Assembly: GCA_016214005.1 (NCBI GenBank)
Contig: JACRPK010000006.1
Coordinates: 17,719 to 81,718 of the forward strand
DNA from: Candidatus Wolfebacteria bacterium
GTDB taxonomy: Bacteria > Patescibacteriota > Minisyncoccia > UBA6257 > UBA9933
Direction: 5' to 3'
Length of the DNA: 64,000 bases
Position numbers and translations under genes: made by a program. The notes beneath the pieces are model-generated. The model saw nothing but the letters and a program-made list of their open reading frames with translations, searched no databases and was not told the origin of the DNA. Below are positions 871 to 13,824 of the stretch, piece after piece; positions within the stretch are counted from its first letter, which is position 1, and every line of letters begins with the position of its first letter.

Positions 871-931
871 ATTTTCGCCATTAACTTTTTTATTTTCGTG
901 AGTATAATACAGTGTAGAAACCTTGAAAAAT
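871..931 (+). promoter_or_regulatory. promoter cassette copy A (TTAACT 881-886, 16 nt, TATAAT 903-908, then GTAGAAACCTTGAAAAATA)
   Basis: Member of an 8-copy repeat family with near-consensus sigma70 -35/-10 and a conserved downstream box. Confidence 0.6.
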
Positions 932-992
932 AAAAATCTAGTCAATTTTTATTTTGACTAATTAACAAAGACTGGAAAGGAGAAGGTGAAAT

Positions 993-1097
993 ATGATAGG
1001 TCCTGAGGACTGGGACGACACTGCCTCAAAAGAGCAGGGGAACGATGGCGAGGATAGCGCCGATTCCAGTAGCAATTCCGATGGCTCTGACAGATAG
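993..1097 (+). CDS. small acidic peptide, 34 aa (MIGPEDWDDTASKEQGNDGEDSADSSSNSDGSDR); candidate precursor peptide
   Basis: ATG 8 nt after GGAGAAGGTGA. Followed by rho-independent terminator. Shares a DW motif with the peptides at 4399 and 6193. Confidence 0.4.
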   Translation: MIGPEDWDDTASKEQGNDGEDSADSSSNSDGSDR

Positions 1098-1146
1098 AGC
1101 CCCGCGCCATAATCCGCTTTCTCAAAAGGAAAGCGGATTTATATTT
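1098..1146 (+). terminator. rho-independent terminator (aatccgctttc...gaaagcggatt + T-run)
   Basis: Perfect 11-bp stem with 6-nt loop followed by TTTATATTTTT. Confidence 0.6.
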
Positions 1147-1156
1147 TTGGAACTTA

Positions 1157-2434
1157 ATGATATTATTTTTAAATATGGCTTTTTATAATAAACAATTCCA
1201 ATCATTTCAATTGAAGAATGGTTTGAATATCATTACTCGCCAAGATAATAATTCGGATATAGCGACATTATCATTTCGAATTAAGGCAGGCTCGCGATAT
1301 GAAAAAGAAAATGAGCTTGGTTATGCCCATCTTTTAGAACATATGCTTTTGAAAGGAACAAAAAATTTTCCTTCTCCTTTTGAAATTGGATATGCCGTTG
1401 ACAGGGCGGGGGCTTATTTAAATGCTTCTACTGGGCAGGAGTTGTCCAGCGTTTATATCCAAGTTGCCAAAGAAAAATGGCAAGAAATGTTTAAATTGCT
1501 TTGTGATATAATTTCAAACCCGATTTTTCAAAAAGAAATTTTTGAAAACGAGAAAAAAGTTATTTTTCAGGAAATCAAAAAAACGAATGATAATCCTAAT
1601 AAATATCTGTGGATCAAAACAATTAAAAATATTTTTAAAAATCATCCGCTTTCTCATCATCCGCTTGGTGATGAAGAAATTATCAAAAAAGCGGTCGTTG
1701 AAAATTTAATAGATTATCGGGAAAGATTATTTATTCCAAATAATATGGTTTTGATTGCCAATGGCGCGATTGATAATGAAGAATTGATAAGAATAACCGA
1801 ACAAGAATTTTCTGTTCAAGATAATATTCAACAAAAAAGCGGCCAGTTCGATTATTCTGTTCCTCAAATAAATAAAGGGGAAGGTTTCGAATATTTTAAT
1901 AGCAGTCAATCTTATTTTAATTTTAATTTTGTTTCCGCCAGGGCTGATTTAAAAGATTATCTGGCGCTTCAATTAATCTCTATTTTTTTGGGTTCTCTTA
2001 AAACATCAATTTTATATCAAGAGTTAAGGCAAAAAATGGGGTTAGTTTATAATGTTAACGCTTATAATACCGGCTATCAGGATGCAAATTTATTTTATAT
2101 TGAAACTTCCAGCAATTATCCGGACAAAGTTATCCCCATAGTAATTGAAAAATTGTTAAATTTTGAAAAATATTTTTCAGAGAGCCTTCTAAAAGAATAT
2201 CAAGAACAATATGTAAATTCTTTAATCCGTAAATTAAGCGATCCATTCAATGAAATAAAGTTTTTGTCAGAATATTGGTTTCTCTATAATGGCATTAATC
2301 AGCTTTCGGATTTAATCAATATTATAAATTCAATAAAATATGAAGATTTATTTAGGATTAAAAATCAATATTTGAACGAAAATAATCTGTTTATTATGAA
2401 AATCGGCAAAGATAATCCGCAAATCCCCGCATAA
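1157..2434 (+). CDS. M16-family (insulinase/pitrilysin-like) zinc metallopeptidase, 425 aa
   Basis: HxxEH zinc motif (HLLEHMLLKGT) near the N-terminus. Length is typical of an M16 subunit. Its stop codon TAA (2432-2434) lies inside promoter cassette B. Confidence 0.7.
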   Translation: MILFLNMAFYNKQFQSFQLKNGLNIITRQDNNSDIATLSFRIKAGSRYEKENELGYAHLLEHMLLKGTKNFPSPFEIGYAVDRAGAYLNASTGQELSSVYIQVAKEKWQEMFKLLCDIISNPIFQKEIFENEKKVIFQEIKKTNDNPNKYLWIKTIKNIFKNHPLSHHPLGDEEIIKKAVVENLIDYRERLFIPNNMVLIANGAIDNEELIRITEQEFSVQDNIQQKSGQFDYSVPQINKGEGFEYFNSSQSYFNFNFVSARADLKDYLALQLISIFLGSLKTSILYQELRQKMGLVYNVNAYNTGYQDANLFYIETSSNYPDKVIPIVIEKLLNFEKYFSESLLKEYQEQYVNSLIRKLSDPFNEIKFLSEYWFLYNGINQLSDLINIINSIKYEDLFRIKNQYLNENNLFIMKIGKDNPQIPA

Positions 2435-2506
2435 AACCTCGCTAATTCCCCCCATTGACTTTTTTGTTTTCGTGAGTATAATACAGGGTAGAAACTTTGA
2501 AAATAA
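2423..2506 (+). promoter_or_regulatory. promoter cassette copy B (ATCCCCGCATAAAACCTCGCTAATTCCCCCC + TTGACT 2455-2460, 16 nt, TATAAT 2477-2482 + TAGAAACTTTGAAAATA)
   Basis: Repeat family member including the conserved 5' extension. Confidence 0.6.
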
Positions 2507-2612
2507 TCAGAGGAAAATCTCTGTTTTTATATATGGCGAAATATCTAAATAAAAACGTGGCTAATTTTTATTTGGTTTTGATTAACTTATAGCTGGGAAG
2601 GAGGATGCGAAT

Positions 2613-2714
2613 ATGGGCGGTAAAGGCGGTTCGGGCGGTCATGGCGGTGGCAATGCTGGTTCTGGCGGGCAAAACGGTCAGGGTGGCATTCGCGGCGGTG
2701 GCAGAGGCCGATAA
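2613..2714 (+). CDS. small Gly-rich peptide, 33 aa (MGGKGGSGGHGGGNAGSGGQNGQGGIRGGGRGR); candidate precursor peptide
   Basis: ATG 8 nt after GGAGG. Leader is conserved with copy A (GGAG..G.GAATATG). Followed by terminator hairpin ccccgatgtgaac...gtttacatcgggg. Confidence 0.35.
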   Translation: MGGKGGSGGHGGGNAGSGGQNGQGGIRGGGRGR

Positions 2715-2716
2715 TT

Positions 2717-2762
2717 CGACCCCGATGTGAACAAATCAATGTTTACATCGGGGATTTTTTTA
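2717..2762 (+). terminator. rho-independent terminator
   Basis: ccccgatgtgaacaaatcaatgtttacatcgggg followed by a T-run. Confidence 0.6.
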
Positions 2763-2779
2763 TTTATACTTTATAAAAT

Positions 2780-3424
2780 ATGATAAAAATTCCTTTTTAT
2801 GAAAATTCGAAAGACGATACTCATTGTTTTCAGGCTTGCTTGAAATCAATATTGAAATTTTATTTTCCTAAAAAAAATTATAGTTTTAAATATTTAGACA
2901 GAGCGACGGCTCACAAAAAAAATAAATGGACATGGAATAGCGCCGTATTTTTATTTTTAGAAAAATTTGGTTTTGAAATTATAAATATTGAAGATTTTGA
3001 TTATGCAAAATTCGCGCGGCTCGGAGAGCAATACCTTAAGAGAATATGGATAGATGAAGTATTTCAGACTCAAAAAAAATTTTCGGATTTAAAAAATGAA
3101 CAGAAATTGGCTAAAAAGTTAATTAAAAATAAAAAAATTAAATTATTAAAACGGCCGGCAACGATAAGTGATATTAAAAAATTATTTATAAAAAATTATA
3201 TTATTTTAGTGAACATTAATCCTTTTATTTTAAATAATAAAAAAGGTTATTCATCTCATATTGTGATTATAACCGATATGAATAAATCAAAAATAACTTT
3301 TCATGATTCCGGTTTGCCTCCGCAAAAAAATAGGAAAGCCCCCATTAAACTTTTCTTAAAAGCGATGGAATATCCTTATAAAGAAGACGCTAGTATTATT
3401 GCATTAAGATTGTTTTTTCTGTAA
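2780..3424 (+). CDS. putative papain-fold cysteine peptidase (C39-like), 214 aa
   Basis: N-terminal DDTHCFQACLKSILKFYF (Cys in a C39-like context). Later GYSSHIVIITDMN (His) and FHDSG (Asp). The order Cys...His...Asp fits C39-like leader peptidases. Confidence 0.4.
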   Translation: MIKIPFYENSKDDTHCFQACLKSILKFYFPKKNYSFKYLDRATAHKKNKWTWNSAVFLFLEKFGFEIINIEDFDYAKFARLGEQYLKRIWIDEVFQTQKKFSDLKNEQKLAKKLIKNKKIKLLKRPATISDIKKLFIKNYIILVNINPFILNNKKGYSSHIVIITDMNKSKITFHDSGLPPQKNRKAPIKLFLKAMEYPYKEDASIIALRLFFL

Positions 3425-3436
3425 GTTTGTGCTTTA

Positions 3437-3490
3437 TCTTTAAAATATTTTTTGAATTAAATATATTCAATTTGCCCGCCCTTTTTTAAT
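3437..3490 (+). repeat. ~50 bp repeat AAATATTTTTTGAATTAAATATATT..TTTGCCCGCCCTTTTTTAATGAT (second copy 17484..17535)
   Basis: Near-identical string at both loci. At the second locus it contains the stop codon of the kinase-like gene. Confidence 0.5.
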
Positions 3491-3513
3491 GATCAAATTT
3501 AATGATCAAAAAT

Positions 3514-3672
3514 TACAGCGTCAAGAAAATATGTTTTTCAGAATGTCTCGGAGGCGCAAAAAGCTTGGTCTTTTGCGAAGCAAAAGTTTTTGCGCCGAGA
3601 GCCAAGCTCTTGATTTTTCGCTGGAAAAAAATCAAAGAGCGGTTCTGAAAAACATATTTTCTTGACGCTGTA
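3514..3672. mobile_element. MITE-like structured repeat copy 1 (30-bp perfect terminal inverted repeats TACAGCGTCAAGAAAATATGTTTTTCAGAA)
   Basis: Three copies in the window (also 41576..41711 and 55953..56112), each with internal nested inverted repeats. ORFs called inside it are spurious. Confidence 0.6.
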
Positions 3673-3699
3673 ATCCCCAAAAAGTTATCCACAGCCTGT

Positions 3700-3785
3700 T
3701 CTCTCCCCATTGACTTTTTCATTTTCCCAAGTATAATGTAGGATAGAAACTTTGAAAAATACCAGTTCTAAGGTTAGAAACTGGT
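3700..3785 (+). promoter_or_regulatory. promoter cassette copy C (TTGACT 3710-3715, 17 nt, TATAAT 3733-3738) plus leader hairpin CCAGTTCTAAGGTTAGAAACTGG
   Basis: Repeat family member. The hairpin-type leader is shared with copies E and H. Confidence 0.6.
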
Positions 3786-3820
3786 TAAAAAAAGAAAGAA
3801 AAGAAAGAGGGGATAGGAAA

Positions 3821-4399
3821 ATGAAATTTTCAACGCGCCATATTATTTTACGACCAATGGAGGAGAAAGATTTATCGATTTTACATCAATGGCGTAACGA
3901 TGGCGATTTTATTCAATATTGTTCCGTTCGTCGTTATCCCGTCGAATACGAAGAATTTATTAATGAGTTGCAAAAGGATTTTAAAAATGATAGGCATCGT
4001 CAATTTATCATAGAATTACAAAAAGAGCGTAAGGTTATCGGTACAACTTATTCTTACAATTTTAACTCAATAGATGGTTATGCGTTTATAACTATTTATC
4101 TCGAGGAAAGGTACCGCTATCGTGGATATGGAGCAGAAGCAGTCGCGCTATTTTTAAGATTTCTTTTTGAATCATATCCCCTCTATAAAATTTATATGGA
4201 AGTGTATGACTATAATCAGCACGCGCTTTCAATTTTGCAAAATGCTAGTTTTGAAGAAGAGGGAAGATTTAAGGAACACCGTTTTTTTCGTGAAGAACGA
4301 TATGATTTAATCAGATTTGCATTTTTTCAGAAATCATTAACAAAAGTTTTTGAATTTTTAGAGAATATAAAATTTTATCGGAAAGGAGGTGATGTCTAA
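3821..4399 (+). CDS. GNAT-family N-acetyltransferase, 192 aa
   Basis: MKFSTRHIILRPMEEKDLSILHQWRND... with acetyl-CoA binding motif region YRGYGAEAV. RBS GGATAGGAAAATG. Confidence 0.7.
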   Translation: MKFSTRHIILRPMEEKDLSILHQWRNDGDFIQYCSVRRYPVEYEEFINELQKDFKNDRHRQFIIELQKERKVIGTTYSYNFNSIDGYAFITIYLEERYRYRGYGAEAVALFLRFLFESYPLYKIYMEVYDYNQHALSILQNASFEEEGRFKEHRFFREERYDLIRFAFFQKSLTKVFEFLENIKFYRKGGDV

Positions 4400-4599
4400 T
4401 GGGTTGGTTTAGAGATAAGGGAAAAGAAGGCATATTTCTTGAGGGGAAATCCAGTCGAGAGCATACCCATAGAGATGGTTCTCATGGGCGCGATGTAGAA
4501 GCATATCGCAACACATATAATGAGGGTGAACAAGTCCACAGCGAGAAAGCGGATGACTGGGGAAAGGATCACGAAAGTTCTGGCGATAGCGGAAAATAA
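4399..4599 (+). CDS. small hydrophilic peptide, 66 aa (…EKADDWGKDHESSGDSGK); candidate precursor peptide
   Basis: TAATG stop/start overlap with the GNAT gene. GGAGGTGA sits 9 nt upstream. Homologous to the N-terminal part of the 6193 protein (HTxRD…DWGxxKD). Confidence 0.4.
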   Translation: MGWFRDKGKEGIFLEGKSSREHTHRDGSHGRDVEAYRNTYNEGEQVHSEKADDWGKDHESSGDSGK

Positions 4600-4616
4600 A
4601 GTGGCACTTAACTAAA

Positions 4617-4662
4617 TAGGGCAGAGAGCAAATACTCTCCGCCCTATATTTTATTTTGAGGT
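4617..4662 (+). terminator. rho-independent terminator (tagggcagagag…ctctccgcccta + T-run)
   Basis: Inverted repeat followed by TATTTTATTTT. Confidence 0.55.
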
Positions 4663-4697
4663 TTCATTTTAAGTAAGTTTAAATTATAATTTTTAAT

Positions 4698-5975
4698 ATG
4701 CGCGATACAAAACAAATATTAAAAAAACCATTATTCTATCTTGTTAATTTACCTCAAAAAACGGATAAGATTTATTTCGATATTTTTTATCGCAGGGGAA
4801 ACATATTCGATCCTCCAATGGCAATGGGCATGGCGCATATGCTTGAACATTATATGGTTGGGCATCTGAAACAAAAATACATTCGCGATCATTTTATGGT
4901 TGGGGGAAGCATAAGTAATAGCTTCACAAATTTTTATCTTATTTCCAGCACACGTCAATTATTGTTAGATTTGCAGATTTTTTTAAGCGGAATTTTTAGA
5001 CCAGAATTTTCAGATAAAACAATTTTTGAATATGAGCTTAAAGCAGTTCGGAATGAAATTGCCGAAAAAAAACACGACATTGAATCGCAGATATTTGATG
5101 TTATTTCAAAAAAAATATTTTTAGGCGATTGTCCGTATCGCGCGGCAAATAATGAAAAAAATAAATATTTTGAAAAATTTACTCTTCATGACATACAGCA
5201 ATTTTACTTAAAAGATTTTTCAACCATAGAACCTTTGTTTGTTATAGGCGGTTATAATATAAACGATCGTTTGCTTAAAGAAGTTATTATTCTTATTCGC
5301 GAATTTTTACCGCAACGATTGCACTTATTTAATCATTTCAATTTTCCCAAATGCATTCCTCGCAGTTTTAACGTTGAAGCGATAAAAAACAAAAACATTA
5401 AAAGTGGGGCATATTCAGTGTTCACTTTTCCCGGTTTTTCAATGCAAGATCATGATTTTCGCTTGAGAATGGGGTTGCATGTGTTGTTAAAAATACTCAC
5501 AGGAAGTTCGCCATTCGGTTTGTCCATAGAAACCCGCAAATTAGGAATCTATAATATTTCTTATAAAAATATTATGAGACCGAGGATAGGGATTGTTTCA
5601 TTATTTTCTTTTACTGAAAATAATCAAATTTTCGCTTTGGCAAAACTAATTAAAGATCATATCGATTTGTTAAAAAAAGATCTTATAAACGAACAATATA
5701 TTTCAAAAATTGTTAACGACGCAAAAAATAAGCAAAAGGCGATTTGGGAAAATAACGAGAATAAATATAATTGGATCATAGATGATTTTAAATATTTAAA
5801 GTTTAATATTAACATCACGGCGGAAAAGAAAATATTGGATTCAATAACGCCTCAGTTTTTGCGGGAAATTGCAAATACAATTTTTAATTGGAGGAAATTC
5901 AATATGTTTGTTATATATAATGATATAAATAATCCACAGATAGGAAAAATAAAAAAAATTTTTCAAAATAATTAA
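4698..5975 (+). CDS. M16-family zinc metallopeptidase paralog, 425 aa
   Basis: HxxEH motif (MAHMLEHYMVGHL). Same length as 1157..2434. Confidence 0.65.
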   Translation: MRDTKQILKKPLFYLVNLPQKTDKIYFDIFYRRGNIFDPPMAMGMAHMLEHYMVGHLKQKYIRDHFMVGGSISNSFTNFYLISSTRQLLLDLQIFLSGIFRPEFSDKTIFEYELKAVRNEIAEKKHDIESQIFDVISKKIFLGDCPYRAANNEKNKYFEKFTLHDIQQFYLKDFSTIEPLFVIGGYNINDRLLKEVIILIREFLPQRLHLFNHFNFPKCIPRSFNVEAIKNKNIKSGAYSVFTFPGFSMQDHDFRLRMGLHVLLKILTGSSPFGLSIETRKLGIYNISYKNIMRPRIGIVSLFSFTENNQIFALAKLIKDHIDLLKKDLINEQYISKIVNDAKNKQKAIWENNENKYNWIIDDFKYLKFNINITAEKKILDSITPQFLREIANTIFNWRKFNMFVIYNDINNPQIGKIKKIFQNN

Positions 5976-5986
5976 CTTTGATCCGA

Positions 5987-6070
5987 ATCCCCGCATAAAA
6001 CCTCGCTAATTTCGCCATTGACTTTTTCATTTTCCCAAGTATAATATAGTGTAGAAACTTTGAAAAATAA
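5987..6070 (+). promoter_or_regulatory. promoter cassette copy D (TTGACT 6018-6023, 16 nt, TATAAT 6040-6045)
   Basis: Repeat family member. Followed by type-II leader ACGCATCCCTGCCTGCCGGCAGGCAGGTTTGTGAATGTGTTAATAAGAAAACCGG. Confidence 0.6.
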
Positions 6071-6077
6071 CGCATCC

Positions 6078-6097
6078 CTGCCTGCCGGCAGGCAGGT
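6078..6097. repeat. 20-bp perfect palindrome CCTGCCTGCCGGCAGGCAGG (copy 1 of 4)
   Basis: Identical palindrome at 11152..11171, 41542..41561 and 55922-ish (core CCTGCCGGCAGG). Confidence 0.6.
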
Positions 6098-6136
6098 TTG
6101 TGAATGTGTTAATAAGAAAACCGGACTTCATATTTT

Positions 6137-6154
6137 GCTATCACTAATGATAGC
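6137..6154. promoter_or_regulatory. 18-bp palindromic operator-like site GCTATCACTAATGATAGC (copy 1 of 5)
   Basis: Same palindrome (GCTATCAC yRr GTGATAGC) at 25155, 42593, 43143 and 43461. Confidence 0.45.
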
Positions 6155-6192
6155 GTGGTCAAAAATAAGTAAAGAAAGAGAGGAATTGAATT

Positions 6193-6576
6193 ATGGGTGG
6201 ATATTCTGAAAAAGATGCGGCAAAAGATACTAATTCTAGTATGAAAGAAACAAAAGATGCTTGGCATACTGCAAGAGATGATGCTGCTGAAGAAGGCGAT
6301 TGGGGTGTGCCAAAAGACAGACATGGTGAAGGATGTTTTATAGCGACTGCGGCTTATGGAAGCTATTTCGAGCCTCACGTAAAAATTCTCAGGGATTTTA
6401 GAGATATTTTTCTTGTGGAGAGTATTTTGGGAAGATTATTCATAAAAATTTATTATTGTATCAGTCCGTTTATTTCCGGTATTATTGAAAAAAGTGAAAT
6501 TTTAAAGAAAATTATGCGAATAATTCTTTCGCCGATAGCATTGTTGATTGAACATATATTTATAAAGCGCTTTTAA
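6193..6576 (+). CDS. 127-aa protein: N-terminal hydrophilic DW-motif peptide region fused to a C-terminal GCFIATAAYGS…LRDFRD…hydrophobic module
   Basis: N-terminal 47 aa are homologous to the 4399 peptide. C-terminus carries CFIATAAYGS followed by LRDFRD and a hydrophobic stretch. I recall this as a conserved C-terminal module of secreted/anchored proteins but cannot name the family with certainty. Confidence 0.5.
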   Translation: MGGYSEKDAAKDTNSSMKETKDAWHTARDDAAEEGDWGVPKDRHGEGCFIATAAYGSYFEPHVKILRDFRDIFLVESILGRLFIKIYYCISPFISGIIEKSEILKKIMRIILSPIALLIEHIFIKRF

Positions 6577-6610
6577 GCGCTTTTTATTTTGGCAAAATTA
6601 TTCATAATAT

Positions 6611-6895
6611 GTGATAATAATAAATATGGGAAAAGAAAATCAAAAAAATCCTGCCTGCGTTATTTTGTGGCAAGATGCGGCATATTCATATGAGAAAGAA
6701 TTTCCGAAAGAATTTCCATTGCCACAATTAACAGCTGGTTTTATTATTTCCGCTAATGATGAAGACGATTTTATAAATATTGCCATGAATGTTGAATATG
6801 ATGAAAAAACCGGTAAATTATATCCGCTCGATGGATTTTTAATACCAAAAAAATCGAAAATTGAATTCAGGAATATGGGATTTTTTAATGAATAA
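6611..6895 (+). CDS. hypothetical protein, 94 aa
   Basis: ORF with ATG start. No recognisable motif. Confidence 0.35.
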   Translation: MIIINMGKENQKNPACVILWQDAAYSYEKEFPKEFPLPQLTAGFIISANDEDDFINIAMNVEYDEKTGKLYPLDGFLIPKKSKIEFRNMGFFNE

Positions 6896-7164: not shown

Positions 7165-7275
7165 ATCCCCGCATAAAACCTCGCTAATTCCCCCCCCATT
7201 AACTTTTTTGTTTTCGTGAGTATAATACAGTGTAGAAACCTTGAAAAACACCAGTTCTAAGGTTAGAAACTGGTT
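7165..7275 (+). promoter_or_regulatory. promoter cassette copy E (TTAACT 7199-7204, 16 nt, TATAAT 7221-7226) plus hairpin leader
   Basis: Repeat family member. Confidence 0.6.
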
Positions 7276-7310
7276 AAAAAAAGAGAGAAAAGAAAGAGAG
7301 GATAAGGAAA

Positions 7311-8444
7311 ATGGTTGAATCGGCTATTGTTACATCACCGCTTAAAACAATGGTTCCAATCATTAAGGTGGTGGGCGATTTTTGCAATTTAAATTGCAAA
7401 TATTGTTTTTATAATGCCAAGGACCAGATTATCCGCCATGTGATGAGCAATGATTTGCTTGAAAAATTTTTTAGCGAGTATCTAGATCTTTTTTCTGGCA
7501 ATCTTTTTATTATTTGGCATGGAGGAGAGCCTCTTCTCGCAGGACTTCGATATTTCGAACATATTGTTGAACTTGAAAAGAAATATCTCAAAAAAGGCCA
7601 AACGATTAAAAACGCCATTTAAACAAATGCTACATTGGTAAACGATGAGTGGGCGCAATTTTTTAAAGCGCATAATTTTAAAGTTGGCGTAAGTTTAGAC
7701 GGCGGACAAGAAAGTCATAATCTATTTCGCAAAAATCATGGAGGGAAAGGTTCTTTTGATCATGCTATGCGAGGAATTAAAATACTCCGTCGTTATGGAA
7801 TAGAGCCTGGGATTATTCAAACTTTGACTCGCGCCAATATTTCGCGTGTTCAAGAAGATTTCAATTTTTTTGTGAATGTTCTTGGAATCCATGCGTGGGG
7901 AACAAATTTTTATCTTGATCTTGATAATATTAATCAGCTCATGCTGGATCAGAATCTTACCAATTGTCAGCTTGCGGATTTTTTGAGAAAACAAATTGAT
8001 CTTTGGCTTGTTCGAAATGATAGAACTTTACGCATTAGAGAAATAGAAAATTTTATTTCTGGCGTGTTTAATAAAAAAACGCCAAGTTGCGCTTTTAGCG
8101 GATCTTGCAGTAAATATTTTTGTCTTGAATACGATGGCAAAATATATCCATGTGATAGATCTTCTGGCAAGTCAGATCTGTTATTGGGAGATTTCTCCAG
8201 ACAATCGTTGCAAGATGTTTTTAATAGCGTGAGCAAATTAAATTATGATAAGCAGATTAATAATTTGCCATCTGAATGTTCAATTTGTGAATGGCTGAAG
8301 TTTTGCAATAATGGATGCGTTATGAACAGGGAAGGCGGGATTGGCGGTAAATATTATTATTGCGAGATGCGAAAAGAGATTTTTGCTTATCTTAAAGAGA
8401 AAGTTGGCGAATATAATCGATCACTTATAACACAAACCGCCTGA
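7311..8444 (+). CDS. radical SAM / SPASM-domain peptide-modifying enzyme (anSME-like), interrupted by an in-frame TAA at 7620-7622
   Basis: CxxxCxxC (GDFCNLNCKYCFY) at residues 25-32, followed by GGEPLL. C-terminal Cys cluster CSKYFCLEYDGKIYPCD…CSICEWLKFCNNGCV matches SPASM. Both halves are in the same frame. The TAA falls where the conserved Q of the (I/V)QTNGTLL motif is expected (here AI*TNATLVNDEW). Confidence 0.75.
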
Positions 8445-8465
8445 AAAGGCAGAAAGGAGATAGCA

Positions 8466-8633
8466 ATGGATGGTAATATTGCAATAGAGGGAGCTTTCTT
8501 AAGAGCGGAAGAACGGTCAAATAACGATCTGTTAATTGAGACAGATTCAAAACGGCAGGAAGCTGTTTTGGATTTTTGCAAATGGCCAGATTGGAACAAT
8601 GCTCCGGATTTCACAGAGCTGGAGACGCTCTAA
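8466..8633 (+). CDS. small peptide, 55 aa (MDGNIAIEGAFLRAEERSNNDLLIETDSKRQEAVLDFCKWPDWNNAPDFTELETL); candidate rSAM substrate
   Basis: Starts 22 nt after the rSAM stop, with RBS AAAGGAGA. Contains a CKWPDW segment (Lys-Trp adjacent). Followed by a terminator. Confidence 0.4.
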   Translation: MDGNIAIEGAFLRAEERSNNDLLIETDSKRQEAVLDFCKWPDWNNAPDFTELETL

Positions 8634-8639
8634 TATATA

Positions 8640-8692
8640 AATATTCCGACAAAGGCTTATCAAAATTTTTGATAAGCCTTTTTTATTTTAAT
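8640..8692. terminator. bidirectional rho-independent terminator (ggcttatcaaaatttttgataagcc)
   Basis: Perfect inverted repeat flanked by T-runs on both strands, between convergent genes. Confidence 0.55.
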
Positions 8693-9585
8693 ATTCCTTT
8701 TAATTCAGAAATTGAAAAATATACTTTTTCTATATATTCGTTATCAAGCGGTTTATTTTTCTTAATGTAAATATTTATTAATTTTATTAATTCTTCGGTT
8801 TTAACATAGTTTTTTGGTATTTTGGCGTTTAACGTAATATTCTTGCTATTTAAAAATTTTCTGCCCAAGACGCCATTGGGGAAAAGAGAACTTATCGCCG
8901 ATTCTTTAATAAGATTTATGGTATCAAAATCATTCAGATATTTTTTATACAGCAAGGGAAGAAAATATTGTTTTTCAAAACATAGATGTATTGTTTCGTG
9001 CCAAATAATACCCATGGCATGATTTGCGTCATTTAACGGATAGCGAGAAATTTCAAGGCTGATACTTTTATTATCAATACTTGCTCCGCCGCCCGTTTGA
9101 ACGGGTGAAGAAAATAATAAATTAATGTTAATTTTAAATTCAGAAGGAGAAGTATTAAAAATAATGTTCAATATATCAACTATAGATTTTACCAAATGCG
9201 GTTCATTTATTTTGTCGCTTAATTTTTTTTGCCATTGAAGTAGGAGAGGCTCTTCTTTGTTCCAAAGCAAATTAAATTTTTTTTCCAACAAAGAAAAAAT
9301 ATTTTTGAGATTAATAAAATCTTCTTGCGATAATTTTTGTTCTAAAATAATCCAAGGATTTTTTTCGATAAAAAATTGGCGCCCTAAGTATGATTCTCCA
9401 AATGGATATCGTAAGTGGATTTCTTTAAATTCTTTCAGGGAGTTTTCTTCTTCTGGCGAAAATTGCCCGAGTTCTTCTCTCCATAAAATATTGTAATTTT
9501 TTCGGTTGCTAAAATGCCATTCGGAAAGGTTTTGGATAAAAAAATAAAAATTTGCCCATTTTGAAATTATAAATTCAAATTTCAT
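8683..9585 (-). CDS. hypothetical protein with HExxH motif (putative zinc-dependent peptidase-like), 300 aa
   Basis: MGIIWHETIHLCFE contains HETIH. No other recognisable domain. Confidence 0.4.
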   Translation of the reverse strand: MKFEFIISKWANFYFFIQNLSEWHFSNRKNYNILWREELGQFSPEEENSLKEFKEIHLRYPFGESYLGRQFFIEKNPWIILEQKLSQEDFINLKNIFSLLEKKFNLLWNKEEPLLLQWQKKLSDKINEPHLVKSIVDILNIIFNTSPSEFKININLLFSSPVQTGGGASIDNKSISLEISRYPLNDANHAMGIIWHETIHLCFEKQYFLPLLYKKYLNDFDTINLIKESAISSLFPNGVLGRKFLNSKNITLNAKIPKNYVKTEELIKLINIYIKKNKPLDNEYIEKVYFSISELKGILK

Positions 9586-9672
9586 ATTATTTATTTTACT
9601 AAATTTTCTTTATTTTAACCACTCCTTTTCTCATAATTTGTTTCCTACTATTATTTTTTCCCAAATCCTTTC

Positions 9673-9760
9673 GAATCCCCCGCATAAAACCTCGCTAATT
9701 CCCCCCATTAACTTTTTTATTTTCGTGAGTATAATCTAGGTAGAAACTTTGAAAAATAAC
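9673..9760 (+). promoter_or_regulatory. promoter cassette copy F (TTAACT 9708-9713, 16 nt, TATAAT 9730-9735)
   Basis: Repeat family member. The leader is a diverged type-II version. Confidence 0.6.
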
Positions 9761-9864
9761 GCATTCGCGAGGAGTGTGGCAACAACGGATAATTTTATTT
9801 ATTATAGACTATAGATGGAGCAGAATGGTTCTGTTCCGCCAAACACCTTAAAAAGGAGACGACC

Positions 9865-10443
9865 ATGATCCAGACAGTCGAAAGGAGTTCTTGTTCGAGA
9901 GGGTTTGAGCACTTCCATGGCGGAGTTGGAGTTCAGGGGATTCTCAGCGATCTGGTAATTCCCGCAATTCCAGGCGAGTACTACGCCTACTCCTCCGAGT
10001 TCACGAAGGAACGACCGCTGTACGCGCTCATGAAGTGCAAGGCGAACAAGGATCGTCCAATTACCGCCGCGGAAGACCTTGGTCAAGAGGCAAACCTGCT
10101 TTTCCTGTTTGGCAACCAGAACCAGGTTCAGGCCTGCGCGATCAGGACGGCGTACATTTCCGGTCTGCTCGGTGACTCCGTCAATGGTGAGTCATTCGGC
10201 GAGACGTGGATTGCTCCCGCCCGGATTACCGCCGAAGACTTCTACGAGCTTCGTTCGAGGAAAGATGTGACGAAGCTAGTGGAAATTTGCCAGGTGGCGT
10301 GCTCGGAGCGCAGGGCATCCATCGCGCTGGAACCAGGGGTGGTCATTGCTATGATGACTGACTGCGGAAAGTACGGTTTGTTCTTCGTGAGGCGGATCAC
10401 TCCAGCACTGATCCAAATTGATGCTTGCCACATCTTGCTTTAG
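9865..10443 (+). CDS. hypothetical protein, 192 aa, in a compositionally foreign high-GC segment
   Basis: The segment ~9800-10560 is ~55% GC against ~30% in the flanks. It has RBS AAGGAGA and a downstream terminator hairpin ccgccaaggggtatcccttggcgg. Confidence 0.5.
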   Translation: MIQTVERSSCSRGFEHFHGGVGVQGILSDLVIPAIPGEYYAYSSEFTKERPLYALMKCKANKDRPITAAEDLGQEANLLFLFGNQNQVQACAIRTAYISGLLGDSVNGESFGETWIAPARITAEDFYELRSRKDVTKLVEICQVACSERRASIALEPGVVIAMMTDCGKYGLFFVRRITPALIQIDACHILL

Positions 10444-10573
10444 CTCCACACGGCACGCGAGTAGCATCTGCCGCCAAGGGATACCCCTTGGCGGCAGATT
10501 TAATTTTAAAACCAGGTATAAAATAGGCACATCAGGGGATTTATGAATAGCATTAGAACCCACCCCCTTGTAT

Positions 10574-11044
10574 CTATAAAATTTTTCGCCACACTTGCCC
10601 GATATCATCATCCGGTGGTGTTATCTCTCCAGCTCTCTCAAAACCCAATTTGCCATGAAAGCGCCACGACTCACTGTGAGAATTAGGACTATATAAAAGG
10701 ATTTCAGTAAAACCAAGTCTGCGCGCTTCCTCAATTAGTTTTAATTTTAGTGTTTTTCCGATACCTCTTCTTTTATATTTTACCGCAATGACATAAAATT
10801 CAACAGGATTATTAGTTAGCGCATACGGCTTTAAGTAGTTAGCCAATTTTTTAAAACCAACAATTCCTAAAATTTCACTGTTTTCCGTTGCTACAAAAAA
10901 ACCGGAATCTTTCTTCGGAGTTTTTTTAACATATAATTGTAATTCACTTAAAAGCTCCTTAAGAAATTCTGGGTCTGTCCAATACAAAGCAAAAATTTCT
11001 TCCACCGCTTTTTGGTCGCTTTCCTGAAATTCTCGGATGATCAT
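10574..11044 (-). CDS. GNAT-family N-acetyltransferase, 156 aa
   Basis: RRGIGKTL acetyl-CoA binding motif and characteristic GNAT fold order. Confidence 0.7.
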   Translation of the reverse strand: MIIREFQESDQKAVEEIFALYWTDPEFLKELLSELQLYVKKTPKKDSGFFVATENSEILGIVGFKKLANYLKPYALTNNPVEFYVIAVKYKRRGIGKTLKLKLIEEARRLGFTEILLYSPNSHSESWRFHGKLGFERAGEITPPDDDIGQVWRKIL

Positions 11045-11087
11045 TTATATATACTAGCAAAATTTTGTGGGTTAGGAAACAAGCGCT

Positions 11088-11171
11088 GTCCATTGACTTT
11101 TTCATTTTCCCGAGTATAATATAGGGTAGAAACTTTGAAAAATAACGCATCCCTGCCTGCCGGCAGGCAGG
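11088..11171 (+). promoter_or_regulatory. promoter cassette copy G (TTGACT 11093-11098, 16 nt, TATAAT 11115-11120) with type-II leader containing the 20-bp palindrome
   Basis: Repeat family member. Confidence 0.6.
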
Positions 11172-11272
11172 TTTGTGAATGTGTTAATAAGAAAACCGGT
11201 ACTACTATTGATAGTAGTGCCAAAGATATTTCAGACAAAGAAAGAAAAGAAAAAGAAAGAGAGGATGGGAAA

Positions 11273-12253
11273 ATGAAAGAAGCAATTCTTATTTTAACTA
11301 ATTCCGAAGATGGTAAACATACGGATGTTGTGCTTGAGAAACTTCAACAGGCTGATCAGAATGTTTTTCGTTTTGATTCAGATCGTTTTGCAAATGGTGA
11401 GATTATAATTGATTTTGAGAATAACCATCGGAGATGCGAATTTGCGATGTATTCTCATGATCAAGTGATAAATTCAAGAAATATTAAAAGTGTTTGGTAT
11501 CGTAGGCCTAATCATTTTAACTTGCAAATTCAAGATCTCGTTCAGCGTAATTATGCCGAACAAGAGATTAAAAATTTGCTAGATGGATTATGGACGATGG
11601 TGCCGGATATTTTTTGGTTAAGCAATCCGAAAAGCCTTGAACAAGCGCGGAAAAAACTTTTTCAATTAAAACTTGCTCGCGAGCTTGGATTCTTAATACC
11701 AGAAACAATAGTTACCAATGACCCAAATCGTGTTCATGAATTTTTTAAGACCTACAATGGTAAGATAGTTTTTAAAGCTTTTTATCATGAATTTCTAAAT
11801 TATGGAGATCGCGCATTTAATATTCCGACTACGCTTATAACAGAAAAACACCTAGAAAAACTTGAGCTTGTCAAGAAAATGCCATGTCTATTTCAAGAAT
11901 TTATCGATAAAAAATACGAGCTAAGAATAACGGTTGTAGGACAAAAAATTTTTCCAGTCAAAATTTATTCTCAAGAAAATTCTCAAACAACTGTTGATTG
12001 GAGAAATCCGGAGTTTATTAATAAACTCCGTTATGAAGTTGTTAGTATCCCAGAAGCGCTTGTTAAAACCTGTTTAACTATGTTGAATGAGCTTGAGCTT
12101 TCGTTTGGAGCTTTTGATTTTGTAGTTGATAAAATAGGGGAAATCTTTTTTCTTGAAATTAACCCTAATGGACAATGGTATTGGATGGAAAGTCAAACAA
12201 ATGTGCCAATTTCTGATGCCATTGTTGATATTCTAAGTTTAGAAAGGAGGTGA
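11273..12253 (+). CDS. ATP-grasp ligase (RimK/MdnC-like; candidate peptide macrocyclase), 326 aa
   Basis: N-terminal MKEAILILTNSEDGKHTDVV and central/C-terminal ATP-grasp regions (ELRITVVGQKIF…FDFVVDKIGEIFFLEINPNGQW). The called ORF begins inside the leader, so the start is set at 11273. Confidence 0.6.
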   Translation: MKEAILILTNSEDGKHTDVVLEKLQQADQNVFRFDSDRFANGEIIIDFENNHRRCEFAMYSHDQVINSRNIKSVWYRRPNHFNLQIQDLVQRNYAEQEIKNLLDGLWTMVPDIFWLSNPKSLEQARKKLFQLKLARELGFLIPETIVTNDPNRVHEFFKTYNGKIVFKAFYHEFLNYGDRAFNIPTTLITEKHLEKLELVKKMPCLFQEFIDKKYELRITVVGQKIFPVKIYSQENSQTTVDWRNPEFINKLRYEVVSIPEALVKTCLTMLNELELSFGAFDFVVDKIGEIFFLEINPNGQWYWMESQTNVPISDAIVDILSLERR

Positions 12254-12259
12254 TAGATT

Positions 12260-12370
12260 ATGAGTCCTGAGATTTTTGCGGCAATTTGCGCCGTGGAATC
12301 ATCAGAACAACTCTCTGAAGTTACGGCGAGTTGGACTGGCCAGGGGTCTTTCAAACATCAAGACGACTAG
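12260..12370 (+). CDS. small peptide, 36 aa (MSPEIFAAICAVESSEQLSEVTASWTGQGSFKHQDD); candidate ATP-grasp substrate
   Basis: AAAGGAGGTGA overlaps the ATP-grasp stop and the ATG is 7 nt downstream. Ser/Thr and C-terminal Asp residues present. Terminator follows. Confidence 0.4.
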   Translation: MSPEIFAAICAVESSEQLSEVTASWTGQGSFKHQDD

Positions 12371-12392
12371 GCAGATTAGTCGGGGACCCAAA

Positions 12393-12432
12393 ATAGGGAG
12401 TGGCGATAAGCTGCTCCCTATATTTATTTTTA
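12393..12432 (+). terminator. rho-independent terminator (atagggagtggcgataagctgctccctat + T-run)
   Basis: Inverted repeat followed by ATTTATTTTT. Confidence 0.5.
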
Positions 12433-12457
12433 ATATAATATTCATTAAAATATAAAT

Positions 12458-13165
12458 ATGTTAAATATACATCTTGAAAATTCAAAACAAACTAAATTTA
12501 TTTTAATAGGAGAAATTCATGGCATAAAGGAAAATATTGAGATATTAAAATCAATAATACAATCATATTTAAAAAGTAAAAATAATAATAAATTAATTTT
12601 AGCATTGGAATGGCCATATCAATTAACAGATGAAATTAATAAATATATAGATAATAATCTGACACAATTAAAATGGCAGAAATGGGATTTTATTAAAAAT
12701 AATGATGGAAGAATATCTAAAGAACATATACTTTTTTTAAAGTGGCTTAAAAATATTAATCGCAATCTCTTAAAAAATAAAAAAATTAAAATTCAATGTT
12801 TTGATGTAATTGAAAAAAAATGGAATAAAAGGGATAAAAAAATGGCGAATATATTACTCAAGTTGAAAAAGAGAAAAAATATTCAATTAGTTGCGATTAT
12901 GGGGAATTTTCATGCTTCAAAAATGGTATTTTATTTTGGTGGCAACAAATATATTCCTCTTGGATCATATTTTCCTCTTGATACAACAATATCTATTAAA
13001 TTAGAATATTGTTCTGGTTATTTTTATAATGAATATTCTAAAAAAATTCCTTCTCACAAAAATATAAATACAATTAAAAAATCTAAATTGCAAAAGAATA
13101 AAAAATCTGAATATGATTATATTTTTTTAATAAAAAAAGCTCATTCAACAAAGCCGTTATATTAA
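12458..13165 (+). CDS. hypothetical protein, extremely AT-rich; possible Tiki/TraB/ChaN-like GxxH…E…GxxH metalloprotein
   Basis: IGEIHG … ALEWP … MGNFHA in that order resembles the Tiki/TraB/ChaN motif layout. Local GC is about 20%. Confidence 0.3.
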   Translation: MLNIHLENSKQTKFILIGEIHGIKENIEILKSIIQSYLKSKNNNKLILALEWPYQLTDEINKYIDNNLTQLKWQKWDFIKNNDGRISKEHILFLKWLKNINRNLLKNKKIKIQCFDVIEKKWNKRDKKMANILLKLKKRKNIQLVAIMGNFHASKMVFYFGGNKYIPLGSYFPLDTTISIKLEYCSGYFYNEYSKKIPSHKNINTIKKSKLQKNKKSEYDYIFLIKKAHSTKPLY

Positions 13166-13179
13166 TAAATTTAAAGTTA

Positions 13180-13716
13180 ATGAATAAAAATTTAGTAAAA
13201 ATTATAAATGAAATGGCCGCCATTGATCAAAAGATGAGAAGAAATGCGATGAAAACTGGAATTTGGGATAAGATGGTTGATAGAAAAAATATATTAAAAA
13301 TAAAAAAAATTATTAAAAAATTTGGTTGGCCGACGATTGGTCTTGTTGGTAAAAAAGCTAGTTGGAATGCGTGGTTAATTATTCAACACGCCGATCATGA
13401 TATTCGGTTTCAAAAAACTATTTTAAGTCTGCTCGAAAAAATTTATAATAAAAATTCATTAGAAATAGATAAAAATAATATAGCGTTTTTAAAAGATAGA
13501 ATTTTAATAAATGAAGGGAAGCATCAAGTATTTGGGACACAATTTTATACAAATAAAAAAGGAATTTTTGGACCGAGGTCGATAAAAGATATTAAAAATC
13601 TTGATAAAAAAAGAAAAGAATATAATCTGCCGCCATTTAGTGAATATAAAAAATTAATAAATAATTACAAAGTTGTTCCGATTAAAAAAAATAATAAAAA
13701 TAATCACCGCCATTGA
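13180..13716 (+). CDS. hypothetical protein, 178 aa, very AT-rich
   Basis: ORF only. Its 3' end abuts promoter cassette H. Confidence 0.35.
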   Translation: MNKNLVKIINEMAAIDQKMRRNAMKTGIWDKMVDRKNILKIKKIIKKFGWPTIGLVGKKASWNAWLIIQHADHDIRFQKTILSLLEKIYNKNSLEIDKNNIAFLKDRILINEGKHQVFGTQFYTNKKGIFGPRSIKDIKNLDKKRKEYNLPPFSEYKKLINNYKVVPIKKNNKNNHRH

Positions 13717-13788
13717 CTTTTTTATTTTCCCGAGTATAATATAAAATAGAAACTTTGAAAAATACCAGTTCTAAGGTTAGAAACTGGT
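13705..13788 (+). promoter_or_regulatory. promoter cassette copy H (TTGACT 13713-13718, 16 nt, TATAAT 13735-13740) plus hairpin leader
   Basis: Repeat family member. Confidence 0.6.
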
Positions 13789-13824
13789 AAAAAAAAGAAA
13801 GAAAAAGAAAGAGAGGATAAGGAA

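Follow-up and report, generated by a model that had tools for sequence, protein, structure and literature searches.

What is a promoter-bearing segment doing in eight nearly identical copies in front of eight unrelated gene modules, and how did it reach them? The question is raised by the first part of a 64,000-nt stretch of a Candidatus Wolfebacteria genome from groundwater (contig JACRPK010000006.1; this whole stretch is called the window below), a member of the candidate phyla radiation (CPR, Patescibacteria). Between positions 851 and 13790 lie eight copies, all direct and on the same strand and each 60–125 nt long, of a cassette in which a near-consensus sigma70 promoter is followed by a conserved box, TAGAAACYTTGAAAA. 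Each cassette heads its own unit in an island densely set with modules of the RiPP type (ribosomally made, post-translationally modified peptides). The best reading, to which we give somewhat better than even chances, is that the copies represent a propagated expression cassette composed of promoter, boxA and hairpin, in an arrangement resembling the nut sites of lambdoid phages.

Eight copies of one promoter cassette

The original prediction, made by reading the sequence without database searches, was of eight near-identical, near-consensus sigma70 cassettes. It was borne out by a repeat search, by alignment and by a pattern search of the window, in which TATAAT-N6-TAGAAACYTTGAAAA was matched seven times against 0.03 matches expected from shuffles. 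The remaining copy, F, is the sole length variant, in which TATAAT and the box are 5 nt apart instead of 6. The eight promoters (TTGACT or TTAACT, a spacer and TATAAT) are the top-scoring sigma70-like sites of the first 18 kb, and the spacer is 16 nt in all of them, including copy C, for which 17 nt had been given. Pairwise identity of the eight 61-nt cores ranges from 77 to 90% (mean 83%), with 22 of the 28 pairs reaching 80%. No further copy was found at 14–64 kb of the window, a stretch of 50 kb with housekeeping genes (among them those for 16S rRNA, RNase P, EF-G and UvrA).

Outside the core, the copies are assembled from a small set of modules (Table 1). A 5′ extension, CCCCGCATAAAACCTCGCTAATT, had been assigned to four copies; its 23-nt core is indeed exact in B, D, E and F, but a diverged, still recognisable form also precedes A. 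Similarly, the two leader types described before do exist, a hairpin type in C, E and H and a palindrome type in D and G, but they do not cover all copies: A and B each carry a hairpin of their own, and the leader of F has AACGCAT in common with D and G and then its own G.U-containing hairpin. C, E and H are alike over the entire 123 nt from promoter to ATG at 79–85% identity, the D and G leaders are 98% identical over 110 nt, and an A/G-rich ribosome-binding site (RBS) module is common to C, E, G and H. The ATG lies 83–152 nt beyond the last base of TATAAT, which replaces an earlier figure of 60–190 bp. In all eight copies, a stem-loop begins 3–10 nt after the 15-nt box, with five distinct stem/loop sequences among them, and folding of the leaders predicts the A-rich box to be single-stranded at the 5′ end of each. 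Transcription is predicted to start approximately 7 nt after TATAAT; since the box begins 6 nt (5 nt in F) after this hexamer, it would lie inside the transcript for any start 6–8 nt after the −10 element.

The genes under these promoters are unrelated. In an all-against-all BLASTP comparison of the island proteins, the best pair was the two M16 peptidases (26% over 102 aa, E=0.005), neither of which stands directly under a cassette. The earlier view that near-consensus promoters are common to unrelated genes thus agrees with a non-paralogous cargo.

Three further roles for the box and leader were considered and rejected. If a leader peptide or upstream open reading frame (ORF) began at the TTG in the box, its frame and length would change from copy to copy: in C and G it would share the frame of the gene, in E it would run for 25 aa, and in H it would meet a stop codon at once. 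A second promoter using TTGAAA of the box as −35 element would lack a consistent −10 element at 16–18 nt across copies or lineages. A riboswitch-like alternative, in which the box pairs with the 5′ arm of the hairpin in C, E and H, is unsuitable as a general mechanism, as it would form only 7 bp against 10 bp and has no counterpart in the other leader types. As a separate observation, the promoter spacer of cassettes C and G, TTTCATTTTCC(C), is perfectly complementary to the RBS/start region GG(G)AAAATGAAA approximately 90–155 nt downstream (3717–3727 with 3816–3826 in C; 11100–11111 with 11267–11278 in G). This may be a compositional coincidence, because the spacer should lie outside the transcript.

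The box in cassettes, rRNA leaders and other lineages

Sequence variation is unevenly distributed along the 61-nt core. The −10 hexamer is invariant (0/6 positions variable) and the −35 hexamer nearly so (1/6), while 5 of the 16 spacer positions and 5 of the 6 positions between the −10 hexamer and the box vary; only one of the 15 box positions does. The box differs from this six-nucleotide discriminator (Fisher test, p=0.0017) and from spacer and discriminator combined (p=0.014), and the alignment places its constraint at the level of the promoter hexamers. Because the box is near-invariant beside 6 nt that vary at five positions, it is taken to be selected and not merely young. This bears on the possibility that the cassettes are recent duplicates of one strong promoter in which the box has hitch-hiked without a function of its own. 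High pairwise identity would suit such an origin, as would the lack of matches to the cassette profile in approximately 0.7 Mb of related loci and in public collections, and the mosaic structure described below suggests ongoing gene conversion, which could homogenise copies without selection. We consider hitch-hiking very improbable, given the non-uniform variability and the fact that rRNA leaders and other lineages contain the box motif but not the promoter part.

The clearest indication of what the box may be came from the window's own 16S rRNA gene. The motif CYTTGAAAA occurs 15 times on both strands of the window: eight times in the cassettes, six times in ORFs and once at 35596, in the 16S leader. 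The longer ACCTTGAAAAAT occurs just twice on both strands (128 kb), in cassette A and in the 16S leader, which amounts to a 12-nt identity. The leader block lies between the rrn promoter and the leader–trailer processing helix (Table 1), the canonical place of a boxA. More rRNA leaders were found through the conserved synteny of L31, 16S and response regulator genes, and four of them, from other CPR loci (L193, L203, L198 and L154; L numbers denote single comparison loci), have the same block at the same position. A plasmid-borne rRNA operon of the Firmicute Priestia megaterium has two such motifs: GAACUUUGAAAACU, which closely follows a small hairpin in the leader, and GUUCUUUGAAAACU, which lies in the 16S–23S spacer (in short form, GAACUUUGAAAAC and GUUCUUUGAAAAC). 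These two sites, leader and spacer, are where boxA is classically located, as the title of Berg et al. 1989 has it.

The match extends in part to the positions known to matter. In Aquifex, BoxA reads GGCUCCUUGGCA, with G2, C5 and C6/U6 as critical nucleotides (PMC3177189), and gamma-proteobacterial boxA elements have been searched for as GYTCTTTAANA (PMC5725501). C5, Y6, U7 and U8, together with the G9 seen in Aquifex and Firmicutes, are present in 8/8 cassette boxes, in which position 2 is an A, and the rrn box GGACCUUG and the boxes of relatives (GUACCUUG, GAACUUUG, GUUCUUUG, GCACUUUG and GGUCUUUG) fit the BoxA core fully. For CRISPR arrays, boxA candidates were validated by comparison with the rRNA leader of the same organism (PMC7665894); here, the same comparison yields ACCTTGAAAAAT. 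The agreement with the rRNA-leader boxA of its own genome makes the box probably an RNA signal that loads Nus factors, and not a repressor site. Known RNA families did not account for it: at the Rfam gathering threshold, the window matched only 16S rRNA, RNase P and one tRNA, and a permissive scan of positions 800–14000 gave two sub-threshold matches at terminators and none at the leaders.

The same motif recurs in other lineages. A survey of 80 loci retrieved through the ATP-grasp gene, and of a small number of additional ones, found GNNCYUUGAAAA(A)UA with a hairpin after it in leaders of ATP-grasp, radical-SAM and other genes of other CPR lineages. The L109 leader is homologous to that of cassette B, and its stem CAGGG/CUCUG still pairs via G.U. 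L114 and L115 have GAACUUUG and GUUCUUUG, a hairpin AACGGC/GCCGUU and then the RBS of the ATP-grasp gene, whilst the family L136–139/147 has GUACCUUG and a hairpin CCUUCUAAU/AUUAGAAGG before both the ATP-grasp gene and the gene of a 650-aa secreted protein. The order of box and then hairpin within approximately 10 nt, which is that of nut sites, is thus also seen in L109, L114/115 and the L136–139/147 family. L193 has a leader with box and hairpin too, RBS and start codon directly follow the box in L125, and GGUCUUUGAAAACUAG lies 38 nt upstream of a radical SAM gene in L215. The L106 family and L134 have repeated promoter cassettes of their own, which lack the box. In these other lineages the distance from the −10 element to the box is 13–29 nt. 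All intergenic box instances in the CPR loci are oriented as the downstream gene, and box instances are strongly over-represented in the intergenic 12% of the sequence. Variable promoter distance, strand specificity, variable stems with G.U pairs and the presence in rRNA leaders argue for a signal at the RNA level. The hairpin would likewise act in RNA, because its stems differ between copies and lineages and some contain G.U pairs (cassette F; L109 compared with B).

These data bear directly on the original interpretation of the box, written as TAGAAACTTTGAAAAATA, as the DNA operator of a dedicated regulon. Under it, the box at +1 to +18 would be the site of a dedicated repressor or activator that joins the units into one regulon, and the C/E/H hairpin would be a second palindromic operator. 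An operator overlapping +1 is a classic position for a repressor. The near-invariance of the box and its fixed distance from the −10 element in the eight copies are in line with this, and a half-site, TAGAAACT, recurs in both arms of the C/E/H inverted repeat, making three half-sites. However, the motif also lies 52 nt into the genome's own 16S leader and in the four other CPR rRNA leaders, where a RiPP-specific operator would make no sense, and in the P. megaterium operon; elsewhere its distance from the −10 element varies, and it is on the sense strand in every case. Moreover, the box has no dyad symmetry, the downstream palindromes of A, B, D/G and F are wholly different and some need G.U pairs, and no DNA-binding regulator is encoded in or beside the island among the ORFs scanned. 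We therefore regard the operator as quite unlikely.

A second alternative accepts a transcribed element but gives it a role unrelated to Nus factors, for example in processing or entry by an RNase, in stabilising the 5′ end, as a ribosome standby site or S1-binding enhancer, or as the target of another RNA-binding protein. Restriction to the sense strand, variable promoter distance and variable G.U-containing stems fit this equally well, as does an A-rich box predicted to be single-stranded at the 5′ end of every leader; processing signals are also present in rRNA leaders, and the critical G2 is missing from the window copies. The box nevertheless closely matches the motifs that occupy both boxA positions, leader and spacer, in the rRNA operon of a Firmicute, and it shares the CYUUG core with the Aquifex BoxA for which a crystal structure is known; in the rrn leaders, the motif is upstream of and separate from the leader–trailer processing helix, and no Rfam family matches. 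We hold a role of this kind to be unlikely.

A few observations concern the rrn locus itself. The first transcribed rrn bases (TATAAT GGGTAGAtatcTGAAAAc, 35531–35560) resemble cassette TATAAT (ata)GGGTAGAaacttTGAAAAa, with a local alignment p of approximately 0.01, and the rrn promoter and leader could, in condensed form, have given rise to the cassette. A tandem repeat, CTGATTTTTGGAGAG x2, is present in the rrn leader at approximately 35561–35590. Within 35253–37837, the 16S gene is solitary, with its own promoter, leader–trailer helix and terminator (37415–37437) and no 23S gene nearby. It is flanked by a divergent L31 gene and a gene for a single-domain response regulator, a synteny kept across distant CPR lineages (L154, L193 and L203).

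Further repeats were noted around the ATP-grasp genes of the comparison loci. Those upstream of ATP-grasp in L121, L125, L126 and L129 were examined as promoter candidates and ruled out, as they are repeated 3′ fragments of histidine-kinase genes. Such fragments (60–240 nt, the HATPase_c end) are repeated two to five times around the ATP-grasp module in several CPR loci (L125 1–140 and 1987–2127; L126, five copies; L129; L121; L109 14112–15672) and may be gene remnants or recombination scars. In L134, a 241-nt segment with terminator, promoter and RBS but without a boxA-like motif is duplicated (9017–9278 and 9741–10001, 89% identical) as a lineage-specific cassette, before the ORF of a 65-aa His-rich peptide and the ATP-grasp gene. 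At L109 8937–9116, a leader with boxA and hairpin is followed by an unannotated ORF for a hydrophobic peptide of 48–59 aa (MKKILANAAVNVMAMVGWITVIALGLVVWCLWKF...), which overlaps the over-extended 3′ end of an annotated gene on the opposite strand. The leader motif may flag small genes that annotation has missed.

Junctions and spread of the cassettes

Comparison with relatives revealed where cassettes meet resident DNA. Gene F, of 55% GC, and a divergent GNAT gene are kept as a pair in L214 (82% amino-acid identity) and L215 (86%), and these relatives share gene F, its native leader and the adjoining GNAT gene with the window at 85–92% nucleotide identity. Homology with L214 (85%) begins at 9777, directly after the hairpin of cassette F; on the other side it stops at 11063 (L214) or 11083 (L215), just 5′ of the cassette G core at 11085–11090. 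Whereas the gene F promoter of L214 is intact (TTGACA...TATTGT), its counterpart in the window has decayed to TGGCAA-17-TATTAT. The suggestion that the cassette moves as a unit gains support from these breakpoints at the edges of cassettes F and G and from the relic of a native promoter 3′ of F. The stop codon of the upstream M16 gene does lie inside cassette B, as had been pointed out, at 2432–2434 within the extension. Gene F had been described as a foreign high-GC gene. Its GC content is high, but it is not foreign to the CPR group, in which the family is widespread and the gene pair is conserved in relatives.

The copies also bear signs of exchange among themselves. The promoter spacer is of the type CGTGAG in A, B, E and F and CCCRAG in C, D, G and H, and 5′ extension, spacer type, leader type and RBS module do not co-segregate. 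As these modules combine in a mosaic, recombination or gene conversion among copies is indicated. Putative mobile promoters (PMPs) have been defined as regions that precede non-paralogous genes and share 80% identity or more across 50 nt or longer (PMC3488235, PMC3575422). The cassettes show 83% mean identity over the 61-nt core, and 98% over 110 nt for D and G, before coding sequences that are non-paralogous. Their cores lie at −121 to −61 in A, C, E and H, and at approximately −189 to −106 in B, D, F and G, where they overlap the PMP window only partly.

Searches outside the window did not recover the complete cassette. An nhmmer profile of the 61-nt core had no significant match in 0.69 Mb of related loci. 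In GTDB representative genomes, TATAAT-N5-6-TAGAAACYTTGAAAA gave 38 single matches and no genome with multiple copies, most of the matches being one orthologous site of the Bacillus cereus group, away from rRNA; a stricter cassette pattern gave no match in JGI metagenomes, and the box alone gave 66 single matches in IMG/VR, which we consider background. The promoter part appears to be lineage-specific, because the core profile is unmatched in both related loci and public collections. The B. cereus-group site (L002 1150–1290; about 30 loci) consists of TTCACA-17-TATAAT, 5 nt, TAGAAACTTTGAAAAG and a terminator-like hairpin, between a membrane-protein gene and a citrate-synthase-like gene and not beside rRNA. 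A small RNA with a 5′ end similar to a Firmicute boxA may be encoded there.

Many dispersed copies at gene boundaries, with B overlapping a gene end and H the 3′ end of the DUF6624 gene, would also be expected of a miniature inverted-repeat transposable element (MITE) or Correia-like element, or of a fragment of an insertion sequence (IS) or integron, with an outward-facing promoter. Correia, ERIC and REPIN elements do carry promoters (PMC3575422). Yet no terminal inverted repeats or target duplications common to the copies were found, only internal leader hairpins and low-complexity A/T matches. Orientation relative to the cargo is identical in all copies, copy boundaries differ and modules are mosaic, and the scanned ORFs of island and flanks encode no domain of a DNA-binding regulator, transposase, integrase or recombinase. 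Integron cassettes, furthermore, are promoterless and carry attC beside intI, whereas each unit here has its own consensus promoter. The original prediction had named descent from a known IS or integron as one outcome that would overturn it; no such fragment was recognised, nor a MITE. Lacking terminal inverted repeats and matches in genomes, metagenomes and viral contigs, the cassettes are extremely unlikely to be elements of these kinds.

Putative function of the cassettes and content of the island

Given the architecture above, we propose a scheme whose steps are deduced from sequence. The cassette would comprise four modules: an optional C-rich 5′ extension, the sigma70 promoter, a boxA-type GAAACYUUGAAAAAUA at the transcript start and a stem-loop 3–10 nt further on. 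RNA polymerase would start approximately 7 nt after TATAAT, so that boxA RNA would occupy approximately +2 to +17. As in rRNA operons and lambda nut, the nascent boxA RNA would recruit NusB–NusE(S10) and other Nus factors. A dsRNA-binding surface adjoins the BoxA site on NusB–NusE (PMC3177189), and through it the adjacent stem-loop may assist. The modified elongation complex would then resist premature (Rho-type) termination across the untranslated leader of 80–150 nt and the short ORFs, possibly with partial read-through of the terminators after the precursor genes into the abutting peptidase and accessory genes. Within the island, the cassette would have spread by recombination or gene conversion onto unrelated resident genes, a promoter capture after which eight RiPP-type modules would be expressed at a common level and depend jointly on the Nus machinery.

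Several points weigh against this scheme. Escherichia coli rRNA-type boxA complexes act mainly on Rho-dependent, not intrinsic, terminators. The transcription units are short, so that a need for processive anti-termination is not obvious. In the cassettes, the G stands 4 nt, not 3, before C5 (GAAAC versus GNNC), and the critical G2 position is an A; the rRNA leader of L198 likewise reads GAAACUUG, like the boxes in the GAAAC register. The comparison within the genome involves one rRNA leader (16S), and nusA, nusB, nusG, rpsJ, rho and suhB are not encoded within the 64-kb window. Stems of at least 6 bp follow 23–33% of chance boxes, which leaves modest support for the adjacency of box and hairpin. 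Finally, the effect could be of either sign, given that boxA acts as a repressing element at suhB (PMC5725501).

A bolder version of the propagated promoter–boxA–hairpin cassette is that CPR bacteria turned an rRNA anti-termination signal into a portable unit, copied it onto modules for peptide natural products and secreted proteins, and thereby tied the output of the RiPP island to the Nus and ribosome-synthesis machinery, possibly with a hairpin-binding partner comparable to phage N. We offer this only tentatively and would sooner doubt than assert it. No candidate for an N-like protein was found among the island ORFs scanned.

Outside rRNA operons, boxA is known from suhB and the gene of a ParE-like toxin (Baniulyte et al. 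2017, PMC5725501) and from CRISPR arrays (Stringer et al. 2020, PMC7665894). The number of targets per species is expected to be small (Baniulyte et al., PMC5725501). The cassettes resemble the known cases in that a short, single-stranded motif on the sense strand of a 5′ leader agrees fully or almost fully with the genome's own rRNA-leader boxA. The known cases, however, are single sites per locus, whereas the cassette box, of putative function and with its G2 shifted by one nucleotide, is fused to a consensus promoter from approximately +2, is followed by a hairpin and is repeated eight times in 13 kb before RiPP-type genes. With lambdoid nut sites (boxA, spacer and boxB, acting with N and NusA/B/E/G), the cassettes have in common a linear boxA, a stem-loop within approximately 10 nt, a strong promoter close by and, as the expected outcome, a termination-resistant elongation complex. 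They differ in their varied stems and loops, which leave no single boxB, in their CPR host and in their biosynthetic cargo. The signals of rRNA operons (boxB–boxA–boxC; Berg et al. 1989) are close in sequence, given the 12-nt identity with the 16S leader and the similarity to Firmicute motifs, but there the hairpin, if any, precedes a boxA that sits tens of nucleotides from the start, whereas the cassette boxA is at the 5′ end with the hairpin after it.

In terms of mobility, the closest precedent is the PMP (Matus-Garcia, Nijveen and van Passel 2012; PMC3488235, PMC3575422), likewise an upstream region of approximately 80% identity or more over 50 nt or more, before non-paralogous genes of one genome and without a transposase. 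The cassettes differ in that eight copies lie within 13 kb of a RiPP island only, are mosaic, contain a defined transcribed signal and have identifiable insertion junctions. The PMP survey of 2012 predates CPR genomes. Anti-termination of the LoaP/RfaH type also involves a conserved element in the transcribed leader of specialised-metabolite clusters that is proposed to modify the elongation complex; it employs a NusG paralogue with ops DNA/JUMPStart or a leader hairpin in long operons, unlike the housekeeping boxA and short units found here.

Mobile promoters and non-rRNA boxA elements are thus both known, and the cassettes do not call for a new category; what is new is a boxA fused to a consensus promoter and hairpin and copied eight times over a RiPP island. 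A full-text search found no literature linking boxA or Nus factors to RiPP or other biosynthetic clusters, or to CPR bacteria. If the box is a true boxA, the cassettes would outnumber the non-rRNA targets of Nus factors known from any other genome and would connect Nus-dependent control of elongation with RiPP biosynthesis for the first time. They would also be without precedent as a cellular nut-like regulon of multiple copies, and as a regulatory logic for secondary metabolism in CPR bacteria, a group that cannot be cultivated by itself and in which gene regulation has hardly been studied. Such a device would offer small genomes with few transcription factors a way to couple a whole RiPP island. 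As a case of promoter capture the locus is unusually clear, with visible junctions and the relic of a displaced native promoter, and its uniform combination of promoter, 5′ leader and RBS is reminiscent of the expression cassettes built in synthetic biology. GNNCYUUGAAAA plus hairpin could act as a search handle for small unannotated CPR peptide genes, and the cassette could be a strong part for expressing CPR RiPPs in heterologous hosts such as Firmicutes, whose boxA is nearly identical.

Coordinates of the cassettes, their cargo and the reference rRNA leaders are collected in Table 1. Each of the eight units ends with an intrinsic terminator. The two M16 peptidase genes and the C39-like, ChaN-like, DUF6624 and APH kinase genes start only approximately 20–50 nt past such terminators.

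Table 1 Positions of cassettes, cargo genes, terminators and rRNA-leader blocks (window coordinates unless a locus is named)
Feature	Position	Strand	Details
Cassette A	851..960	+	Core 873-932; 5′ extension (diverged) 851-880; -35 TTAACT 881-886; -10 TATAAT 903-908; box TAGAAACCTTGAAAAATA 915-932
Cassette A hairpin	939-960	+	TAGTCAA..TTGACTA; cargo 34-aa acidic peptide ORF 993-1097
Terminator, unit A	1111..1139	+	Intrinsic; M16 peptidase ORF (1157-2434) 18 nt on
Cassette B	2425..2523	+	Core 2447-2506; 5′ extension 2425-2447; -35 2455-2460; -10 2477-2482; box 2489-2506
Cassette B hairpin	2508-2523	+	CAGAGGAAAATCTCTG; cargo 33-aa Gly-rich peptide ORF 2613-2714; leader homologous to L109
Terminator, unit B	2720..2753	+	Intrinsic; directly 5′ of C39-like gene (2780-3424)
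Cassette C	3699..3820	+	Core 3702-3761; no 5′ extension; -35 3710-3715; -10 3732-3737; box 3744-3761; hairpin 3762-3784
Cassette C downstream	up to ATG 3821	+	Common A/G-rich RBS leader; cargo GNAT 3821-4399 and 66-aa peptide ORF 4399-4599
Terminator, unit C	4618..4647	+	Intrinsic, fold -19.9 kcal/mol and T-run; second M16-like gene (4698-5975) follows
Cassette D	5989..6124	+	Core 6010-6069; 5′ extension 5989-6011; -35 6018-6023; -10 6040-6045; box 6052-6069
Cassette D palindrome	6077-6096	+	CCTGCCTGCCGGCAGGCAGG; cargo CFI-box-CTERM protein 6193-6576 (NF041770, 90 bits)
Terminator-like hairpin, unit D	6564..6583	+	At end of CFI-box gene
Cassette E	7167..7310	+	Core 7191-7250; 5′ extension 7167-7189; -35 7199-7204; -10 7221-7226; box 7233-7250; hairpin 7251-7273; common RBS leader
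Cassette E cargo	7311-8444	+	Radical SAM/SPASM peptide maturase, anSME/DynA/DarW type; then 55-aa peptide ORF 8466-8633
Terminator, unit E	8651..8681	+	Intrinsic
Cassette F	9678..9778	+	Core 9700-9758; 5′ extension 9678-9700; -35 9708-9713; -10 9730-9735; box 9741-9758
Cassette F hairpin	9760-9778	+	CGCAUUC-GCGAG-GAGUGUG, G.U-containing; cargo 192-aa, 55% GC gene 9865-10443, family unassigned
Native leader of gene F, kept 3′ of cassette F	9777..9864	+	Degenerate promoter remnant 9777-9805
Terminator, unit F	10466..10499	+	Intrinsic; stem 15 bp, 10 G-C pairs
Cassette G	11085..11272	+	Core 11085-11144; no 5′ extension; -35 11093-11098; -10 11115-11120; box 11127-11144; palindrome 11152-11171
Cassette G downstream	11198-11272	+	Second hairpin 11198-11221; A/G-rich RBS module 11237-11272
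Cassette G cargo	11273-12253	+	MvdD-type ATP-grasp; then 36-aa peptide ORF 12260-12370
Terminator, unit G	12393..12421	+	Intrinsic; then ChaN-like gene 12458-13165, DUF6624 gene 13180-13716
Cassette H	13702..13824	+	Core 13705-13764; no 5′ extension; overlaps DUF6624 3′ end; -35 13713-13718; -10 13735-13740; box 13747-13764; hairpin 13765-13787
Cassette H downstream	13825-15134	+	Common RBS leader, then disrupted lipoprotein ORF
Cassette H later cargo	15200-16399; 16406-16498	+	Radical SAM/SPASM enzyme; 30-aa peptide ORF
Terminator, unit H	16510..16535	+	Intrinsic; then APH-family kinase gene 16552-17508
16S rRNA promoter and leader (reference outside cassettes)	35508..35648	+	TTGACA 35508-35513, 17 nt, TATAAT 35531-35536
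boxA-position block of 16S leader	35593-35612	+	GGACCTTGAAAAATTAAAAG; approximately 52 nt into transcript
Leader–trailer helix strand	35637-35648	+	AGTTGTCCCAAT; pairs with ATTGGGCAACT at 37387-37397, 3′ of 16S gene
rRNA-leader block	L193		GCAGTTTGAAAATTTAA
rRNA-leader block	L203		GCAGCTTGAAAATTTAA
rRNA-leader block	L198		GAAACTTGTCAAC
rRNA-leader block	L154		GGAACTTAAAAGC

Several features of the cargo deserve mention. The radical SAM/SPASM gene of cassette E is split by a single in-frame TAA (7620–7622) into halves of the same frame (7311–7622 and 7635–8444), which jointly match one maturase; it could be a pseudogene, a sequencing error or a case of recoding. The lipoprotein-like gene of cassette H is broken into two ORFs (13825–14313 and 14436–15134) and has a GC content of 45%, compared with approximately 30% in its neighbours. 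The MvdD-type ATP-grasp gene, an ORF for a peptide of 36–38 aa and the DUF6624 gene form a three-gene module (window 11273–13716; L106–L112 and L109–L111) conserved in CPR relatives at 55–69% identity, which is probably a RiPP system of the graspetide type with DUF6624 as a conserved partner.

Just 5′ of cassette C lies a perfect 32-nt inverted repeat, ATTACAGCGTCAAGAAAATATGTTTTTCAGAA (3512–3543 and 3643–3674), with 99 nt between its arms that include two smaller terminator-like hairpins. On the 3′ side of the island, we noted a HicB/HicA toxin–antitoxin pair (18850–19359), a GIY-YIG nuclease gene (17624–17893) and three tandem paralogues resembling type IV secretion system (T4SS) pilins of the TrbC/VirB2 kind (22900–24518). 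A similar pilin array is also present in L214.

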